IMG/VR virus record: IMGVR_UViG_3300017917_002116
Location: 51,421-115,420 of that record
DNA length: 64,000 bases
Reading direction: 5' to 3' (one strand)
DNA from: a virus
Shown piece by piece: positions 41,300-51,869 of this stretch. Each line of letters starts with the position of its first letter. Position 1 is the stretch's first letter. The notes below the pieces were generated by a model that ran no database searches, had not been told where the DNA came from, and saw nothing but the letters and a program-made list of their open reading frames with translations. The translations under genes were made by a program, and so were the position numbers.

Positions 41300-43366
41300 A
41301 TGAAACTCCGTCCTACTCTTATTGCACTTGCAGTATCAGCGATAGCAGGAAGTGTGCAGGCACAGGTCTTTACCAATCAGGAAACTGTTGCTAAGACAAA
41401 TTACCTGAATGCTATTGGTGCACCGGCAGCATGGGCCCGTGGCATTACAGGTAAAGGAGGTGTGATCGCAGTTCTGGATAATGGTTTTGCTGTCAATCAC
41501 ACCGACATTAAACCCAACGTCCTTGCCTACAAGAATTTTTATGTAGGCGACACCTACACATGGGGCTTGCATGGAACGCAGATGGCCAGCATTGCCGCAG
41601 GCGTAGCCAACGGCGCAGGCACTGTGGGCGTGGCACCCGACGCTAAATTGATTCTTGGACAAGTCGGTACTGGCGGAACCAGTCCCAGCATCGACATGAA
41701 TGCAGTTATCAAAGGTATGACCTGGGCTGAAGGTCTCGGTGCTAATGTTATTAACCTGAGTCTTGGTAGCAACTATGACTCTACGTTCAAGGCAGGCACT
41801 ACGCAGATTGCTCCTGGTATTTTTAAGTCTGCTCCTGGTTACGGCACTATGTATGGTAACAGCCTGACTGACATGCTACAATTTACCGGTGCCACAAAGA
41901 GCACTGTGATTGTTGCCAGCGCAGGTAATAGTGCCACACCTTATGCTCAATTTCCTGCGGCATTCGCAGTACAAACGGACGCTAATGGCAATTTGATTAT
42001 GGGCGGCCGAGTGCTGATCGTTGGTAATGTCAAGTCAGATGGCAAGGGCGGCTGGGTTATGGATGCTAGCAGTAATCGAGCAGGCACCCTCTGCCAGAAA
42101 ATTGTTGCCAATGTTTGTCAAGACAAATACTATGTCAAAGACTTCTACGTCGTGGCTCCTGGAAATGCCATCTGGGGCGCAGTACCTGACGAAGCACGAA
42201 CCGCGACTGCTATCAAAGCAGGTCTAACTAATGGTGTTGGTGGCGTAACAGGAACCAGTCCCAGTGCCGCGTTGGTTAGTGGCGGCATCGCGCTCATGCG
42301 CCAGGCCTGGCCGCAACTCAAGGCAGCACAATTGGTTAATCTTGTTTTAGACACTGCTACTCCTCTCGGTGACAGCAATGTCTACGGCAAGGGTATGGTG
42401 AACTTTGACAAGGCAACGCAACCTACAGCAGGCCTGAAATACACCACTGCTAGCCTTACTTCAGGCCCTACAGTGTCTGGTACTAGTGTACAAAACACAG
42501 GTGTTGCAGTATCAGGTAATGTAGGGGCCGCACTGAAAACCAGTAGTGTGTTGCAGAGCGTTCAGGTGGTTGATGGTTTGAATCGTAACTTTACCGCAGA
42601 CTTTACCAAGGCAATCGGTGTTAATACTCCTGCAAATAGCCTTTACACTAGTCCCTATCTTGCAATGCAGAGTTTGGGCTACAAGGAATTCACTGTGCCC
42701 ATGGGCAAGGATAGTACTCTGACATTGATGCAGAGTTTTAATGGTGTAGCGGCACAATATGAAACTGGTTACAAGGAAGGTCGTATTAGTTTCCAGACCG
42801 GTACTATGACTGAACGCAACGGTTTCTTGAATAACTCTGGTACAGGCCTGTTTGGTATGGGCAATAGTGCTACCAGCTATGCAATGATCGGTGGTAGTTA
42901 CCCCATTGTTAGAAGTGTGGATCTGATCGGAAATTATGGTGTTGGTATTACTCGCACTAGTAACGCACAAGATAGCATGCTGGCCCTGAGCCCTACAATT
43001 ATCAGCGATACCTGGAAACTGGGTATTGCCAAGAAGGAGATCTTCTTCAGCGGTAGTACACAAGATCAACTGACCTTGGCAGTGCATGGACCGGTGGCAG
43101 TGCGTCGTGGTTCTGCAGACGTGACCGCTGTGACTGGCTACACTTATTCAGGTGCAGAAGATGATGTGACTGCCAATCCGATTATCAGCAAACAACGAGT
43201 CAACCTTGCGGCAGGACAACGCCAACAAGATCTGATTCTGAGCTATAGTGTTAGTGTAAGTAATAAGACTTATGCTGGTATCAGTGTTGCCAAACAGTTT
43301 AATGTTGGTGGTATCGGCGGACAAACTGGATCGGCATTTGGTCTAATGGTGCGTAGTGTGTTCTAA
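41300..43366 (+). CDS. Secreted subtilisin (S8) protease with C-terminal beta-rich, autotransporter-like domain
   Basis: Sec signal ending VQA. Triad VLDNG / HGTQMA / GTSPS; oxyanion SAGN. Alternating beta strands ending in C-terminal Phe. Confidence 0.85.
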   Translation: MKLRPTLIALAVSAIAGSVQAQVFTNQETVAKTNYLNAIGAPAAWARGITGKGGVIAVLDNGFAVNHTDIKPNVLAYKNFYVGDTYTWGLHGTQMASIAAGVANGAGTVGVAPDAKLILGQVGTGGTSPSIDMNAVIKGMTWAEGLGANVINLSLGSNYDSTFKAGTTQIAPGIFKSAPGYGTMYGNSLTDMLQFTGATKSTVIVASAGNSATPYAQFPAAFAVQTDANGNLIMGGRVLIVGNVKSDGKGGWVMDASSNRAGTLCQKIVANVCQDKYYVKDFYVVAPGNAIWGAVPDEARTATAIKAGLTNGVGGVTGTSPSAALVSGGIALMRQAWPQLKAAQLVNLVLDTATPLGDSNVYGKGMVNFDKATQPTAGLKYTTASLTSGPTVSGTSVQNTGVAVSGNVGAALKTSSVLQSVQVVDGLNRNFTADFTKAIGVNTPANSLYTSPYLAMQSLGYKEFTVPMGKDSTLTLMQSFNGVAAQYETGYKEGRISFQTGTMTERNGFLNNSGTGLFGMGNSATSYAMIGGSYPIVRSVDLIGNYGVGITRTSNAQDSMLALSPTIISDTWKLGIAKKEIFFSGSTQDQLTLAVHGPVAVRRGSADVTAVTGYTYSGAEDDVTANPIISKQRVNLAAGQRQQDLILSYSVSVSNKTYAGISVAKQFNVGGIGGQTGSAFGLMVRSVF

Positions 43367-44199: not shown

Positions 44200-45654
44200 A
44201 TGACATCTTGTACTATACATATTCGTGACGAAGTCAATATCAAAATATCAGGACTAGAAGTTAGTACCAGGAGAAAACTAGAGAAGGCGTTAAAGTATTT
44301 TATGCCCTATGCCTACCACACACCAGCATATAAACTAGGACGCTGGGACGGCTGTGTAAGTTATTTTTCTCTTGGTGGCGCTAGCTACTTCAATTTGTTA
44401 GATCGAATTCTGCCTACTATAGTAGACGAAGGCTACAAGGTAGAGGTAGATGACCAACGTTCTGCTTGGAATTTCGAATTTCCAGAAGTGTGCGAAACAA
44501 CACATGAGCAGACATTATGGCCCAAAGGTCACCCTGCCGCAGGCACACCAGTTCTTTTACGTGACTATCAAGTCACCGCCGTGAATCAGTTTCTAAAGAA
44601 TCCGCAGTGTGTTCAAGAGATTGCCACTGGTGCAGGTAAAACTGTGATGACTGCTACATTGAGCAAGTGTGTAGAAGGCTATGGACGTAGCATTGTGATT
44701 GTACCCAACAAGGATCTGGTAAAACAAACTCTAGAAGATTATGAGCTATTGGGACTGGATGTTGGTGTATATTTTGGTGACAAAAAAGAGCTAGGAAAAA
44801 CACATACCATTTGTACATGGCAAAGTCTGCATAGCCTTCAAAAACGATTCAAGGAAGGTGACAGCCCCATTGGACTGGACGAGTTCGCTGAGGACATGGT
44901 GGCGCTGATTGTTGACGAAGTGCACCAAGCCAAAGCAGATGTACTCAAACAATTACTCAGTGGACCATTTGCACATGTGCCCATACGCTGGGGACTAACA
45001 GGTACCATACCCAAAGAGGAATTTGAGCGAATTGGTCTGGTGGCATGTATAGGTAATGTGGTAAATAAGATTGCAGCCAAAGATCTTCAGGACCTGGGAG
45101 TACTTGCAAACTGCCAAGTAAATGTGTTACAATTACAAGATACCGTTGAGTATCCTACCTACCAGGAAGAATTAACTTATTTGACCACCAACACCAAACG
45201 CATAGATTTTATTGCAGAGTTTATAGATAAACTGTCTGCATCCGGCAATACTCTTGTGTTAGTGGATAGGGTTAAGTGTGGTGAGATGCTCTGTGAGAGA
45301 ATACAGGACGCTGTATTTGTTAGTGGTACAATGAAAACAACAGACAGAAAAGAGCACTACGATGAGATTAAAGAATCTGATGGCAAGGTTATTGTGGCGA
45401 CTTATGGTGTGGCCGCTGTGGGTATTAATGTTCCTCGTATTTTTAATTTGGTTCTTCTGGAGCCCGGAAAGAGCTTTGTCCGCGTTATACAAAGCATTGG
45501 GCGAGGTATTAGACGAGCTCAAGACAAGGACCATGTAGAAATCTGGGACATAACCTCCAGTGCAAAATTTAGTAAACGTCACCTTACCACCAGAAAAAAA
45601 TATTATGAAGAAGCCGGATATCCCTACAAGGTTGAGAAAGTTAGACACCAATGA
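44200..45654 (+). CDS. uvsW: SF2 DNA/RNA helicase
   Basis: LRDYQ, ATGAGKT, VDEVH, GLTGT, QSIGRGIR. Confidence 0.92.
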   Translation: MTSCTIHIRDEVNIKISGLEVSTRRKLEKALKYFMPYAYHTPAYKLGRWDGCVSYFSLGGASYFNLLDRILPTIVDEGYKVEVDDQRSAWNFEFPEVCETTHEQTLWPKGHPAAGTPVLLRDYQVTAVNQFLKNPQCVQEIATGAGKTVMTATLSKCVEGYGRSIVIVPNKDLVKQTLEDYELLGLDVGVYFGDKKELGKTHTICTWQSLHSLQKRFKEGDSPIGLDEFAEDMVALIVDEVHQAKADVLKQLLSGPFAHVPIRWGLTGTIPKEEFERIGLVACIGNVVNKIAAKDLQDLGVLANCQVNVLQLQDTVEYPTYQEELTYLTTNTKRIDFIAEFIDKLSASGNTLVLVDRVKCGEMLCERIQDAVFVSGTMKTTDRKEHYDEIKESDGKVIVATYGVAAVGINVPRIFNLVLLEPGKSFVRVIQSIGRGIRRAQDKDHVEIWDITSSAKFSKRHLTTRKKYYEEAGYPYKVEKVRHQ

Positions 45655-46153: not shown

Positions 46154-46654
46154 ATGGCTAGGCAAAAAACAGCAGGCGAAAAGCCCAAGTTAGATATGTT
46201 TAACAAGATACTGCCGGGCATCGACCGCAGGGATCGTAGTGTTTATGCAAACTTAAACGAAGATGAACGCAAGGCATTTGGCGCATGGCTAATCATGCGT
46301 TATATGAGCAGTGCAGAATATAGTAGGGCAGATGTAATTGAGAGATATCTAATATGCACTAATGAAGCAGTAAATGTAAATTTTAGTGACATAAAAGATG
46401 ATGAGTTCAAATGGTTGCTGATGACCACCGTGGGGTGTGGGGCAAGTATTAAGCATCCATATATTGCACCAGGTGGTGGCAAGCGCAAGAAGAAAAATCA
46501 TTTTCGTGAATGGCTGCGAGAACAATATCCACATTTAGACGATCAAGAGCTAGATCTAATGATGTCTAACATGGATAAACATATAGCCAAAGACATACTG
46601 GAACAGTTTCAGGTAAAAGATAAAGATATTATTGATAGTGCAAATGACCTATAA
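46154..46654 (+). CDS. Clamp loader small subunit-like protein (T4 gp62-like)
   Basis: E.KAF..WLIMRYMSS...NE.VN...H.YI pattern, size and replication context. Confidence 0.55.
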   Translation: MARQKTAGEKPKLDMFNKILPGIDRRDRSVYANLNEDERKAFGAWLIMRYMSSAEYSRADVIERYLICTNEAVNVNFSDIKDDEFKWLLMTTVGCGASIKHPYIAPGGGKRKKKNHFREWLREQYPHLDDQELDLMMSNMDKHIAKDILEQFQVKDKDIIDSANDL

Positions 46655-47321
46655 GTGTAAATTTTGCAAAAAAGAATTCGTCAGAGAAACAACTTTGGTC
46701 AGCCACCTTTGCGAACAAAAGCGCAGAATAGCAGCCAAAGATGACAAACAAAATAGAATAGCATATTTAAGTTGGTTGACATTTAGAAAGACCACCATAG
46801 CGAATACTAAAAAAGATAAACCCTACGAAGATTTTGCCACCAGCAGATACTATACTGATTTCATGAAATTGAGTAAGTATATGATAGAACTTAAATTAGA
46901 CTGTGATGACTTTATAAAGTTCTTACTCAAGCATAGTGTAAAAATGTCTGACTGGACAAAGAATTTTGTCTACGAAGAATACGTGCGTGAAAAATTAAAG
47001 AAGGAAACGGTGGAACGTGCAGTAGAGAGAAGTATTCTGCACATGAAAGAATGGGCCGAAAAGACAGGCGGCAGTTGGGAAGAATATTTTGCCAAAGTAC
47101 CACCAGCGCAGGCAGTACATGATTTTAAAACAGGCAGGCTAAGTCCCTGGTGTACTTTCGCCACAGACCAAGGTAGTAGATTGATAGATAGACTCGAACC
47201 AGGTCAGATCACTGACCTTATTGAATTTTTAGACGCCAAGCCCTGGAGGGCTCGTGTAAAAAGACAGGCAGCAGACGCAGCCTGGGTGCAACTAGTTTTT
47301 AACAAAGCAGGAATACTATGA
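46644..47321 (+). CDS. Zinc-finger protein (C-x2-C-x12-H-x-C)
   Basis: MTYKCKFCKKEFVRETTLVSHLC. Confidence 0.7.
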   Translation: MTYKCKFCKKEFVRETTLVSHLCEQKRRIAAKDDKQNRIAYLSWLTFRKTTIANTKKDKPYEDFATSRYYTDFMKLSKYMIELKLDCDDFIKFLLKHSVKMSDWTKNFVYEEYVREKLKKETVERAVERSILHMKEWAEKTGGSWEEYFAKVPPAQAVHDFKTGRLSPWCTFATDQGSRLIDRLEPGQITDLIEFLDAKPWRARVKRQAADAAWVQLVFNKAGIL

Positions 47322-47545
47322 ATCAATATGCAGAAAAACCTAGGGTAGCGGCATTACTACGCTCGCCCATCAAGGAGAATTCAACAGCCAAGGTTGTTAA
47401 TGGCATGGTGGAGATAATCATTGATGGCGAACGAGTACTTGCACCCAGCATGGAGGCCTTTGCCAAGTTAGCAGCCAAGGTGGCCAGTCTGGAACAACGA
47501 CTAAACAATGTAGAAAATAAAACTAATAGGGTTAGGCGCGAATGA
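47318..47545 (+). CDS. Small protein with C-terminal coiled coil
   Basis: ATGA overlaps on both sides. Confidence 0.7.
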   Translation: MNQYAEKPRVAALLRSPIKENSTAKVVNGMVEIIIDGERVLAPSMEAFAKLAAKVASLEQRLNNVENKTNRVRRE

Positions 47546-48105
47546 GCACAGATATTGATATAGACTTTGCAGATAGAGAACAAGTACTCAAGGTCTTAAA
47601 GCATACACCTGCAATGCAGATGGATGGGAATAAACCACGCAAACATAATACAGGTGTTTACTTTCATCATGTACCACTGAATCCATTTACTGGATTGAGC
47701 ACTCTTGATTATAAACAGGCAGAAGAAGAGGGTTGGTTTAAAATAGACCTGCTTAATGTAGGCATATACACAGATTTTAAAAGCAATGAAGAAATTGATG
47801 AGCTTTTAGAAAAAGAACCCGTATGGGAAATGTTGCAACACAGGGAAATAATTGAGCAATTATTTCACATACATAATCACGCAGACACGGTGATTAAAAT
47901 GCGGCCCACAAGTATAGAGCAGTTGGCCATGGTCCTGGCCTGTATACGTCCAGGTAAACGGCACCTAATAGGTAAATCCTGGGCGGAGATTGAACGTGAA
48001 GTTTGGGTTAAAACTGATGATGCTTATAGTTTCAAGCAAAGTCACGCTATTGGGTATGCTGTGGCTATTGTGCTACAGATGAACAAAATGGCTTATAGTT
48101 TTTGA
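47542..48105 (+). CDS. dnaE: Miniature DNA polymerase III alpha (DnaE) catalytic fragment
   Basis: DIDIDF, HNTGVY, FKIDLL, FHI, RPTSIEQLAMVLACIRPG, YSFKQSHAIGYA, collinear with DnaE palm/finger motifs. Confidence 0.85.
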   Translation: MSTDIDIDFADREQVLKVLKHTPAMQMDGNKPRKHNTGVYFHHVPLNPFTGLSTLDYKQAEEEGWFKIDLLNVGIYTDFKSNEEIDELLEKEPVWEMLQHREIIEQLFHIHNHADTVIKMRPTSIEQLAMVLACIRPGKRHLIGKSWAEIEREVWVKTDDAYSFKQSHAIGYAVAIVLQMNKMAYSF

Positions 48106-48461
48106 ACTAACTGAATTTGTCTGCGTTTAATTCTTTTTGTTATTATATTTTGTAGGCTAACGGGTATACCGTGAATAATGTCGAAGTCTTTTACATTAAA
48201 TGTTTTAAGACAGTAACTTAATTGTTTGAATCTGGGGCCTATGACGAGATTAATGGGGAGAGTTCTACTACTGCCCCACCACCATTCTTCCCCGAGTTCT
48301 AGAAATAATTGTTTGTCGTCCTTGCCCTGCAGGTTGTTATAGACATAAACGCTAGCTATGGTAGTGGTATAATTCTGAATTATGCCCAAAAACTCCTCTT
48401 CGCCGCTCTTACACAAACTCAAAAATGGGAATTTTTCTAATATTTCGTTATGGTTCGCCAT
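48093..48461 (-). CDS. Hypothetical late protein
   Basis: Minus-strand TAAATA 6 nt before ATG. Confidence 0.7.
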   Translation of the reverse strand: MANHNEILEKFPFLSLCKSGEEEFLGIIQNYTTTIASVYVYNNLQGKDDKQLFLELGEEWWWGSSRTLPINLVIGPRFKQLSYCLKTFNVKDFDIIHGIPVSLQNIITKRIKRRQIQLVQKL

Positions 48462-49296: not shown

Positions 49297-50268
49297 ATGA
49301 TGGCCTTACAAAATCTACTACGCAGCAGACTAAATGGTAGGACCAGCCCCAAGGGTTGGGTATCATTCAACTGCCCCATGTGCGTGGTAAATGGTCAAAG
49401 TCGTCCTGATACTAGACATCGTGGCGGCGTAATGTACAATCCTGATGGAGCAGTGAGCTATCACTGTTTCAACTGCCATTATAAAACTAGTTGGCAACCA
49501 GGTAGAACGCTGAGCTTTAAGATGCGTAAACTGCTCAGGCAATTGGGATTTGACGAAGCAGAGATACAGCGACTGAATCTAGAACTGCTGAGCCAAGCAG
49601 ATATAGAAAATATCAAGTTTAAAGAACCAGAACCCACGTGGACACCTGATTGGCCTGATTTTGAATTTGGGTTTGATGTAAAACAGTTAACTAGTCACGA
49701 CAAAGTAGATTATTTGGAAAGCAGACAGATTTACAACCTAGCCGTGTGGTTGGAGACGGACTATAAAGATCGCGCCTTTGACCGCAGGGTTATACTGCCC
49801 TATACATACGAAAATAGACTAGTTGGTTATGTGGCAAGGTGTGTAGGCGATATGCCGCCAAAGACAAGCAAATATATACGCAAGGCGCCTGCTGACTTTG
49901 TCTATGGACTGGATAATCAAAGAGATCAAAGACAATTTGTTATTGTTAGCGAAGGGGAATTTGATGCACTGCTTACATCTGGACTTGCCATTGGTGGTAA
50001 CAATTTAAGTGATAGGCAGGCACAGTTGATTGAGGACTTAAACATAGAGCCCATAGTTATTCCAGACAGAGACTCCGCTGGTAGACAACTGGCAGAACGT
50101 GCGGCAGATTTTGGCTGGAGTGTAAGTTTTCCGGATTGGGAAGATTGCAAAGACGTGACCGATGCTGTATTAAAATATGGCAGGCTGTTTACTATACATA
50201 GTATCCTACAGGCCGCAGAACACAGTCCTACAAAAATAAGATTATTATCTAGGAGGCTTGGTGGATAA
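49297..50268 (+). CDS. gp61: DNA primase (gp61/DnaG-like)
   Basis: Zn ribbon CPMC...HCFNC; TOPRIM EGEFD, PDRD, KDV.D. Confidence 0.9.
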   Translation: MMALQNLLRSRLNGRTSPKGWVSFNCPMCVVNGQSRPDTRHRGGVMYNPDGAVSYHCFNCHYKTSWQPGRTLSFKMRKLLRQLGFDEAEIQRLNLELLSQADIENIKFKEPEPTWTPDWPDFEFGFDVKQLTSHDKVDYLESRQIYNLAVWLETDYKDRAFDRRVILPYTYENRLVGYVARCVGDMPPKTSKYIRKAPADFVYGLDNQRDQRQFVIVSEGEFDALLTSGLAIGGNNLSDRQAQLIEDLNIEPIVIPDRDSAGRQLAERAADFGWSVSFPDWEDCKDVTDAVLKYGRLFTIHSILQAAEHSPTKIRLLSRRLGG

Positions 50269-50476
50269 TTACGGATATGAGGTACGCAAAGACTGGCGGC
50301 TTGGCCAGAACACAGACGATTGGTGGACCAGCGTATGTGTATGGGTCATTGAACAATTTGGCATGCCCGGGGACAATTATATCACAGAGTTAAGTAGTGA
50401 GTACATGATTTTTAAATTTAAGCAAAAAGAACACGCAATGATAACAGCCTTGCGTTGGGGGAATGACAATGGCTGA
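50258..50476 (+). CDS. Small hypothetical protein
   Basis: SD AGGAGG; W..EQFG.PG..Y...F.F...A...LRW. Confidence 0.7.
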   Translation: MVDNYGYEVRKDWRLGQNTDDWWTSVCVWVIEQFGMPGDNYITELSSEYMIFKFKQKEHAMITALRWGNDNG

Positions 50477-51869
50477 TGAAGTTAAAGAATATAGCACAGA
50501 ATTACAAAAACTATTTTTGGAGTTTTTGATCAGTGATAAGGAACTGTTGGCTCGTTGCCAAAACGTTTTAGATGATACACATTTTACTCGTAGCCTGCAG
50601 GCAACTGCTGCCTTTATCAAGGACTATGCAAACAAATACAGTGACTGCCCAACCACAGAACAAATACAGGCAGTCACAGGTCTAGACATTAAACCTATAC
50701 CTGCGGAAGTTACCAACCACAAGGATTGGTTTCTAGAAGAATTCGAACAATTTGCTAGACACAAAGCACTTGAAAAAGCCATTCTTAAAAGTGCAGACCT
50801 GCTGGACAAGCAACGCTATGGCGAAGTTGAGCGATTAATCAAAGATGCCAGTAGCGTAGGCCTGCCCAAGAGCTTTGGTACAGACTATTATGCTGACCCC
50901 ATGGAACGTTTGACCAAGTTAAAGAACCAAAATGGTGGTACAAGTACAGGCTGGAAGACCATTGACGACAAACTGTATGGTGGTTTCAATCGCGGCGAAC
51001 TTAATATATTTGCTGGTGGATCTGGTGCAGGCAAATCATTGTTCTTGCAGAACTTGGCACTGAACTGGAGTCAGATAGGACTCAATGGAGTTTACTTTAG
51101 TCTTGAACTTAGTGAAGGTCTGTGTAGTATGCGTATGGATGCCATGCTTATGGGCATTGCAACTAAAGAAATTTATCGCAACTTAGAAGATGTTGACCTT
51201 AAGGTTAGGATGAAAGGTAAGACTGCGGGTAAGATACAGATTGTACAACTTACAGCAGGTGTAACAGTAAATGATCTTAAGAGTTGGCTTAAAGAGTTTC
51301 AGATACAGAGTAATAGAAAAATTGACTTTGTTATTGTGGACTACCTAGACTTGATGATGCCAGCAAGCCAAAAGATCAGCGTGGCAGATTTGTTTATCAA
51401 AGACAAGCTAGTATCTGAAGAGTTACGTGCCATGGCCACACAAGGCAATTATCTATTCTGCACAGCAAGTCAGTTGAATAGAGGCGCCGTGGAAACAGTG
51501 GAGTTTGATCACAGTCATATTTCAGGTGGCTTGAGTAAGATTCAGACTGCTGACAACGTGATTGGTATCTTTACCAGCACAACAATGCGTGAGCGAGGCA
51601 GAGTTCAGTTACAGTTTATGAAGACTCGTTCAAGTAGCGCAGTTGGTACTAAAATAGAGCTAGAGTTTAATGTAACTAGCCTGCGTATCACAGACCTTGG
51701 TGAAGACTCTGCAGACGCACCAACCACAACAGATGTATTAACTGAACGACTTAAAAGATCCAGCACAACCATTGATAGGGAAACGGGCGAAGTTGTAGAG
51801 CGCCGCCCCGAGCCCGCAATGGCTATCAGAGGCATGGACGACAAAATTAAGAAAATGCTTCAGAAGTAA
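50463..51869 (+). CDS. gp41: DnaB-like replicative helicase
   Basis: GGSGAGKS, SLEL, IVDYLDL, TASQLNR, KTRS. Confidence 0.93.
   Translation: MTMADEVKEYSTELQKLFLEFLISDKELLARCQNVLDDTHFTRSLQATAAFIKDYANKYSDCPTTEQIQAVTGLDIKPIPAEVTNHKDWFLEEFEQFARHKALEKAILKSADLLDKQRYGEVERLIKDASSVGLPKSFGTDYYADPMERLTKLKNQNGGTSTGWKTIDDKLYGGFNRGELNIFAGGSGAGKSLFLQNLALNWSQIGLNGVYFSLELSEGLCSMRMDAMLMGIATKEIYRNLEDVDLKVRMKGKTAGKIQIVQLTAGVTVNDLKSWLKEFQIQSNRKIDFVIVDYLDLMMPASQKISVADLFIKDKLVSEELRAMATQGNYLFCTASQLNRGAVETVEFDHSHISGGLSKIQTADNVIGIFTSTTMRERGRVQLQFMKTRSSSAVGTKIELEFNVTSLRITDLGEDSADAPTTTDVLTERLKRSSTTIDRETGEVVERRPEPAMAIRGMDDKIKKMLQK

Follow-up and report, generated by a model that had tools for sequence, protein, structure and literature searches.

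A short phage reading frame as the likely C-terminal half of a split, minimal DNA polymerase III alpha

The window analysed here, by which term we mean the whole 64-kb stretch of viral DNA, contains in its replication module an intact open reading frame (ORF) of 187 amino acids (aa) that bears motifs of the bacterial replicative DNA polymerase, DnaE; and the question arises as to what a protein so short may be, whether an enzyme in its own right, one part of a divided enzyme, or a remnant. The ORF begins with an ATG that overlaps the TGA of an upstream 75-aa ORF as ATGA, a start/stop coupling that had been read correctly in the original prediction, in which the protein was taken for a "palm-only" polymerase of the C family. 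With only three residues ahead of the first catalytic aspartate, the motifs follow one another in the order D4-I-D6-I-D8-F, H35-N-T-G38-V, and K67-I-D69-L-L; then R121-P122, L128-A129, and R136-P137-G138; and finally Y162-S-F-K165-Q-S-H168-A-I-G-Y172-A173. The positions of the gene, of its principal motifs, and of its neighbours are collected in Table 1.

Table 1. Features of the locus and of the surrounding replication module, with positions in the window.
Feature	Position	Strand	Basis
C-terminal unit (very probable) of a split minimal DNA polymerase III alpha, 187 aa: second palm half plus reduced fingers	47542..48105	+	PHROG 11778, PDB profile search, AF2, VIA-align
D4-I-D6-I-D8, strand with the first two catalytic Asp (E. 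coli D401/D403, Taq D463/D465)	47551..47565	+	Alignment to Taq 460-468
K67-I-D69, conserved Lys and third catalytic Asp (E. coli K553/D555)	47740..47748	+	Alignment to E. coli 553-555, Taq 616-618
R136-P137-G138-K139, fingers motif (E. coli ...FRPG, ~638-641)	47947..47958	+	Profile alignment, conservation
F164-K-Q-S-H168-A-I-G-Y-A173, fingers motif (E. coli FNKSHSAAYA, within aligned 739-769)	48031..48060	+	Profile alignment, conservation
SF2 (UvsW-like) DNA helicase, opening the conserved module	44200..45654	+	PHROG 16, E 6e-73
CCHC zinc-finger protein with all-helical body, PHROG 11058, ~225-229 aa, probable start 46644	46644..47321	+	HMM, synteny, AF2
75-aa ORF, translationally coupled to the C-unit	47318..47545	+	Weak PHROG 34730 match only
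Convergent 122-aa ORF, PHROG 11637	48093..48461	-	Synteny
DNA primase (Toprim)	49297..50268	+	PHROG 47, E 1e-31; Pfam Toprim_2
DnaB-like replicative helicase	50463..51869	+	PHROG 19, E 5e-67
Secreted subtilisin-like protease, 688 aa, just upstream of the replication module	41300-43366	+	PHROG 3677

The ORF matched PHROG 11778, a family labelled "DNA polymerase," at an E-value of 1e-65, and matched the full-size DnaE profile PHROG 405 weakly, in three collinear pieces (profile positions 444-462, 583-679, and 784-808). Searches of Pfam and NCBIfam gave no match, the Pfam model DNA_pol3_alpha (PF07733) being likewise silent, while a single-sequence phmmer search against the PDB returned only noise (e.g., a methylase and the oestrogen receptor). 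In the PDB, DnaE was reached not with that single sequence but only with a family profile, which profile we built from 86 diverse homologues having 30-58% identity to the query (alignment A1): the sole significant matches were then the Pol III alpha chains of Thermus aquaticus (Taq), Escherichia coli, and Mycobacterium tuberculosis, with E-values between 5e-6 and 1e-4. In the profile alignment, DIDID fell on Taq D463-I-D465-T-D467; KIDLL on K553/D555 of E. coli and K616/D618 of Taq; RPG on approximately residues 639-641 of E. coli; and FKKSHAxAYA on the E. coli FNKSHSAAYA, inside the aligned residues 739-769. An AlphaFold2 (AF2) model computed from A1 attained a pLDDT of 96 and a pTM of 0.88; the top 14 PDB matches of that model in Foldseek were all Pol III alpha; and its VIA-align superposition, which covered 181-185 of the 187 residues, gave a Z of 9.8 for Taq alpha (residues 460-836), 9.6 for PolC (970-1294), and 9.1 for E. 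coli alpha (399-779), as against 4.7 for the best unrelated chain. Homology to the catalytic core of DnaE and PolC is thereby established, and the order of DnaE motifs asserted in the original prediction is borne out by the reading of the ORF itself, by the collinear PHROG 405 pieces, by the A1 profile, and by the structure prediction against DnaE that had been proposed as a check.

The term "palm-only," for its part, was wrong. Some 380 residues of DnaE are compressed to 187 in this protein, and, on the E. coli domain boundaries attributed to Lamers et al. (2006), we take the aligned span to start in the tail of the first palm segment, to pass through a thumb of which hardly anything is left, and to run on over the second palm segment as far as the inner fingers. 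From those boundaries the protein amounts to half a palm with miniature fingers, the RPG and KSHAxxYA motifs being ones of the DnaE fingers domain; and, the alignment being confined to E. coli 399-779, the protein has no PHP domain, clamp-binding region, or OB domain, and is without the outer fingers and nearly all of the thumb. With bacterial DnaE (E. coli 2HNH, 2HQA, and 5FKW; T. aquaticus 2HPI and 3E0D; M. tuberculosis 5LEW) it has in common the Pol-beta-type palm, the three acidic residues with the lysine, and RPG/KSHAxxYA, but differs in lacking, besides the domains just named, the tau-binding region and the palm half with GRGS, which half is found in another protein. With the PolC of Firmicutes (Geobacillus, 3F2B) it shares the fold, as 183 residues could be aligned, yet at only 13% identity and without the extra domains of PolC, the sequence profile matching DnaE and not PolC. 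A complete palm with GRGS on one chain, as in canonical DnaE and PolC, is not what this ORF encodes, since it starts at the DxD strand.

A protein of this kind had in fact been published. Iyer et al. (2021; Viruses 13:63, PMC7824862) described, in the group 2.2 jumbo phages, a minimal split DNA polymerase III alpha composed of an N-terminal unit that binds the NTP and a C-terminal one that binds Mg2+ and the template (hereafter the N-unit and the C-unit), "encoded by distantly located genes" and occurring beside a family B polymerase (PolB); and they suggested that this split mini Pol III may serve to model the bacterial replicase in its ancestral form. In earlier phage papers only the N-unit had been recognised, being described there as a "truncated" 172-aa Pol III alpha (CBB; Atu_ph07 gp316). 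In GenBank the C-unit of phage Phosso is annotated as "DnaE-like DNA polymerase III alpha," and the omics paper on PA5oct contains no gene-level statement on the corresponding gene. The literature searched contained no report of the split mini Pol III having been tested biochemically or genetically. The C-unit as a kind is already published and is labelled in PHROG 11778, the present gene being a moderately divergent member; and, judged from its sequence, the ORF is almost certainly the C-unit of a split minimal Pol III alpha of the group 2.2 (RaK2/121Q/PA5oct/Atu_ph07-like) jumbo phages. It resembles the C-units of Phosso, PA5oct, Atu_ph07, and 121Q in family, length, split point, catalytic residues, and neighbourhood, but comes from an uncultured lineage, on a partial contig from which both the N-unit and the PolB are missing.

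If the ORF is a C-unit, the first half of the palm should be sought elsewhere, and in the relatives that half was located. When PHROG 405 was run over the Phosso genome, a 177-aa ORF was found to match the DnaE-profile positions 362-436 at a distance of 224 kb from the C-unit; and this N-unit, used as a query, picked out exactly one copy each in PA5oct, Atu_ph07, 121Q, and XacN1, in open frames of 169-213 aa lying 15-183 kb from the respective C-units; in 121Q the N- and the C-unit are genes 56 and 16, and the C-unit of PA5oct is gp264. A separate GRGS-bearing N-unit of about 175 aa, one per genome, is accordingly present in all five of the complete relatives, and an IMG/VR contig (G004) likewise carries one, ca. 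44 kb downstream of its C-unit. Among isolate phages tallied by genus, the N-unit and C-unit matches numbered 34 and 34 for Escherichia, 8 and 8 for Salmonella, 8 and 8 for Erwinia, 4 and 4 for Xanthomonas, 4 and 4 for Yersinia, and 10 and 11 for Klebsiella, while the surplus of N-unit matches in isolate phages consisted of genuine full-size phage DnaE genes. The N-unit family comprises at least 7989 clusters, with a PF07733 match on each of the 120 listed; G.GRGS occurred in all 120 N-units examined, and the tails that were tallied end in (E/D)FL(K/N/E/R). This end corresponds to the ...FERFLN of E. coli, a few residues before the PDFDVDF at which the C-unit begins, so that in DnaE coordinates the sequences of the two units prove to be exactly complementary at the break (...ERFLN | PDFDVDF...).

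The two units also occur joined. In P0176, a metagenomic protein of 375 aa, residues 6-183 correspond to the N profile (hhalign probability 99.8%, E 8e-29) and residues 188-374 to the C profile (100%, E 2e-46), with a short linker between them; from these matches we read P0176 as a case in which the N- and C-units are naturally fused into one chain. It was the only fusion among the 150 listed of 421 C-unit representatives; a search for longer C-unit relatives in a protein library other than that of P0176 yielded none that was fused or full-length; and in the search for its DNA context the IMG/VR scan came back empty and the metagenome scan gave ordinary DnaE genes only. As a separate observation, the contig OKRZ01000398.1 carries a DnaE-like ORF of 933 aa (L098:7581-10382, +) that, having GPGRGS near residue 150 instead of near residue 360 as in E. 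coli, appears to be without most of the PHP domain and, by its sequence, may represent a C-family polymerase on one chain that has been partly reduced. The proposal in the original prediction that the protein was a piece of a split Pol III alpha thus gained support from the N-unit in all five complete relatives and in G004 and from the natural fusion; and its companion claim, that the GRGS segment would be a separate ORF elsewhere, held good in those same genomes.

That source contig, an IMG/VR record of 115,420 bp, is about 32% complete according to CheckV, and within those 115 kb the N-unit was not found by PF07733, PHROG 405, a GRGS regular expression, or phmmer and tblastn with two N-units as queries; the lone GRGS string that the contig contains was rejected as an N-unit, for it sits in an unrelated ORF of 572 aa. 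The absence of the N-unit is uninformative, because in the relatives it lies either 31-44 kb downstream or some 180-220 kb upstream of the C-unit, and the contig reaches no further than 16 kb on the downstream and 99 kb on the upstream side. Nor were a PolB (PF00136) or a DnaQ exonuclease found in the same 115-kb, ~32%-complete contig; a family B polymerase is present in five of the five complete relatives. The pairing of an N- with a C-unit in the present phage would accordingly be inferred from those relatives. Near the C-unit module of 121Q (L091, genes 9-10) and of XacN1 (L092, ORF223), at a distance of a few kb, we also observed a gene for a DnaQ/epsilon-like exonuclease, whose product could do the proofreading for the mini Pol III.

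Regarding the neighbourhood, the genes of the module run in the order SF2/UvsW-like helicase, two 166-aa ORFs, a 229-aa ORF, the C-unit, the convergent 122-aa ORF, a virion structural protein, the primase, and DnaB; and the same order was found in Phosso, PA5oct, Atu_ph07, and 121Q, in a looser form in XacN1, and in essentially all of 80 IMG/VR loci examined. The original prediction had looked for partners of the polymerase among the coupled neighbours. The 75-aa ORF, however, is present in only three of the 80 related loci, which are the closest three (L009-L011), and is a lineage-specific filler rather than a conserved partner; and the label "gp62-like" given to another neighbour received no HMM support. 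The zinc-finger gene, for its part, stands upstream of the C-unit in 72 of the 80 loci, often with a start/stop overlap. In its product a C-x2-C-x12-H-x-C finger, with the invariant residues C5, C8, H21, and C23, precedes a body made up of helices alone, and AF2 modelled the protein with a pLDDT of 94; Foldseek with that model gave no match, a wide VIA search reached at best a Z of 5.3 (AAA+ lid-like bundles and the N-domain of Pol alpha p68) and a Z of 4.3 for the C-domain of T4 gp59, all within the range of noise, and a search of the ESM Atlas returned viral hypothetical proteins only. We regard this protein as a candidate for an accessory role beside the mini Pol III and as the sole neighbour that deserves a test in that capacity. 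The 3' end of the 122-aa ORF overlaps that of the C-unit by 13 nt, and the ORF is present in 77 of the 80 loci, the same tail-to-tail layout recurring in Phosso, PA5oct, Atu_ph07, and 121Q; it is the lone minus-strand gene in a replication module otherwise on the plus strand. Scans for promoters, terminators, and T4 late promoters were uninformative.

With the partner half and the neighbours in hand, the reading of the 187-aa protein as a self-sufficient "palm-only" polymerase, acting alone or together with the products of its operon, can be weighed. All three catalytic aspartates do reside on the one chain, the single-chain model is compact and confident, and the start of the gene is coupled to the genes upstream; yet the GRGS loop and the first palm half come from a gene of their own, which strictly accompanies that of the C-unit and, in DnaE coordinates, ends where the C-unit starts, nature has joined the same two units in P0176, the coupled 75-aa neighbour is not conserved, and the neighbour that is conserved, the zinc-finger protein, shows no polymerase-like fold. 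We hold this reading to be extremely improbable; by its sequence, the C-unit taken alone would be an incomplete active site.

Whether the C-unit is maintained as a functional protein can be judged from the size and the conservation of its family. A HMMER scan of 1.84 billion representatives identified 421 C-unit clusters, almost all of 180-215 aa, and a word-indexed search identified 3003 clusters at 90% identity, of approximately 187-200 aa and from independent assemblies. Among isolates, 96 phage records contain a C-unit, all of them of jumbo phages of the types RaK2/121Q/PBECO4, PA5oct, Atu_ph07/Phosso, XacN1, SCTP-2, and RsoM2USA, the nearest isolate relative being that of the Sinorhizobium phage Phosso, at 52% identity, and the nearest metagenomic protein having 88%. 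In the 86 sequences of A1, D4, D6, K67, D69, and P137 are invariant, while D8, H35, G38, R136, K139, K165, and H168 are conserved in at least 90%; K165, H168, and A173 are nearly invariant among the C-unit relatives. In a wider alignment of 270 relatives with 30-100% identity, D4 and D6 are both Asp in 246 of 246, K67 is Lys in 262 of 262, and D69 is Asp in 261 of 262, the remaining rows being gaps that stem from fragments truncated at contig ends. Between the C-unit gene and seven IMG/VR relatives, pN was 0.10-0.35 with a saturated pS of 0.64-0.89, and dN/dS, where computable, was 0.06-0.16: strong purifying selection acts on the C-unit. One relative, P0225 (233 aa), was observed to have the C-unit N-terminus in its first ~110 residues and to resemble, in the remainder, the C-terminal region of a pseudouridine synthase of the RluA type, and is probably a chimeric or frameshifted metagenome gene call.

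These data bear on two further alternatives, both of which are effectively excluded. According to the first, the ORF would be a piece of a pseudogene, or else what a collapse during misassembly had left of a full-length dnaE, for which possibility the small size is the only argument; but over 3000 cluster representatives of the same length from independent assemblies, together with the 96 isolate phage records, exclude such a collapse, and the conserved start and stop, the purifying selection, and the fixed synteny point away from a pseudogene as well, so that we assign to this alternative a next to negligible probability. According to the second, the protein would be a non-catalytic remnant with a structural or regulatory function, such as a decoy or a scaffold in the replisome, an idea with which the drastic loss of domains and the PolB replicase of the relatives would agree; the essential invariance of D4, D6, K67, and D69 in the 270 relatives is, in contrast, the signature of a retained active site, and the remnant is very improbable. 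The original prediction, which had maintained that all three catalytic aspartates were kept and that the gene was no pseudogene, therefore stands in both respects; and variable catalytic aspartates and frameshifts, which it had named as evidence that would count against it, were looked for and none were seen.

The explanation that we consider likely, taken as a whole, is that the ORF is the C-unit of a two-chain split mini Pol III performing auxiliary DNA synthesis beside PolB. In such an enzyme, the C-unit would bring the metal-binding aspartates (D4, D6, and D69), K67, and the reduced fingers facing the template and the dNTP (RPGK and FKxSHAxxYA), while the N-unit, made from its distant gene, would contribute the opening half of the Pol-beta-type palm, including GxGRGS, the loop that binds the triphosphate. 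From the complementary sequences of the two units, their assembly into one two-chain enzyme appears very probable. The chains would dock non-covalently and without an intein, there being no room for split-intein halves, and would so rebuild a single nucleotidyltransferase centre. As to the activity of that centre, we lean, without great assurance, towards its being a DNA polymerase, given the sequence motifs that the two chains would pool: it would carry out template-directed synthesis in a helper role—repair, the synthesis of one strand, or primer extension—beside the family B replicase. Without a thumb, a clamp-binding region, or a proofreading domain of its own, the enzyme would probably be distributive or reliant on other phage proteins; and processive synthesis by it is doubtful in view of the missing thumb and the lack of a recognisable clamp-binding region.

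An alternative for the same pair of chains is a nucleotidyltransferase that is not a templated polymerase, for example a terminal transferase (or a tailing enzyme), an enzyme that modifies primers, or one that produces a nucleotide signal, like other enzymes of the Pol-beta fold. The aligned range, in which no thumb, clamp-binding motif, or OB domain is represented, and the complete family B replicase already present in the relatives would both suit such a function; but the fingers motifs that line the template and dNTP site of DnaE (RPG and KSHAxxYA) are nearly invariant, which would be unexpected if no template were read, and the gene lies within a helicase-primase module. We judge this alternative unlikely. 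A more elaborate version of the templated enzyme would be a machine of three parts, in which the distant N-unit, the C-unit, and the zinc-finger protein, the last replacing the functions of the thumb or of the clamp-binding region, would together serve a dedicated step at the fork, such as the extension of the primers made by the primase before hand-off to PolB. This arrangement we consider decidedly improbable; if it were true, it would constitute a phage analogue of the division of labour of the eukaryotic Pol alpha.

The two-chain mini Pol III that we favour can be set beside two other systems. Cyanobacteria possess an intein-split DnaE, whose halves are encoded by two distant genes and are ligated by a split intein. 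The mini Pol III resembles that system in being a C-family polymerase from two distant genes, but differs from it in having no intein halves: only three residues precede the catalytic strand in the C-unit, the N-units stop at EFL(K/N), and the linker in P0176 is short. The full-size phage DnaE proteins, as in the group 3.2 jumbo phages (e.g., Bacillus phage G) or in the Pseudomonas phage nickie, are likewise phage-borne C-family polymerases, and the N-unit query matches them weakly; these, however, are host-like, single-chain, PHP-bearing, and the only polymerase, whereas the mini Pol III is minimal, split, and in the relatives accompanied by a PolB.

What the present stretch contributes is one more moderately divergent C-terminal half, on an incomplete contig, and of use here are the essential invariance of the catalytic residues over hundreds of relatives and the exact location of the break point. 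A first biochemical assay could conveniently start from the single-chain form P0176. The split mini Pol III is, to our knowledge, the smallest known core of a C-family polymerase, and in a very large clade of giant phages it would represent an active site contributed by two proteins and maintained beside a family B replicase.
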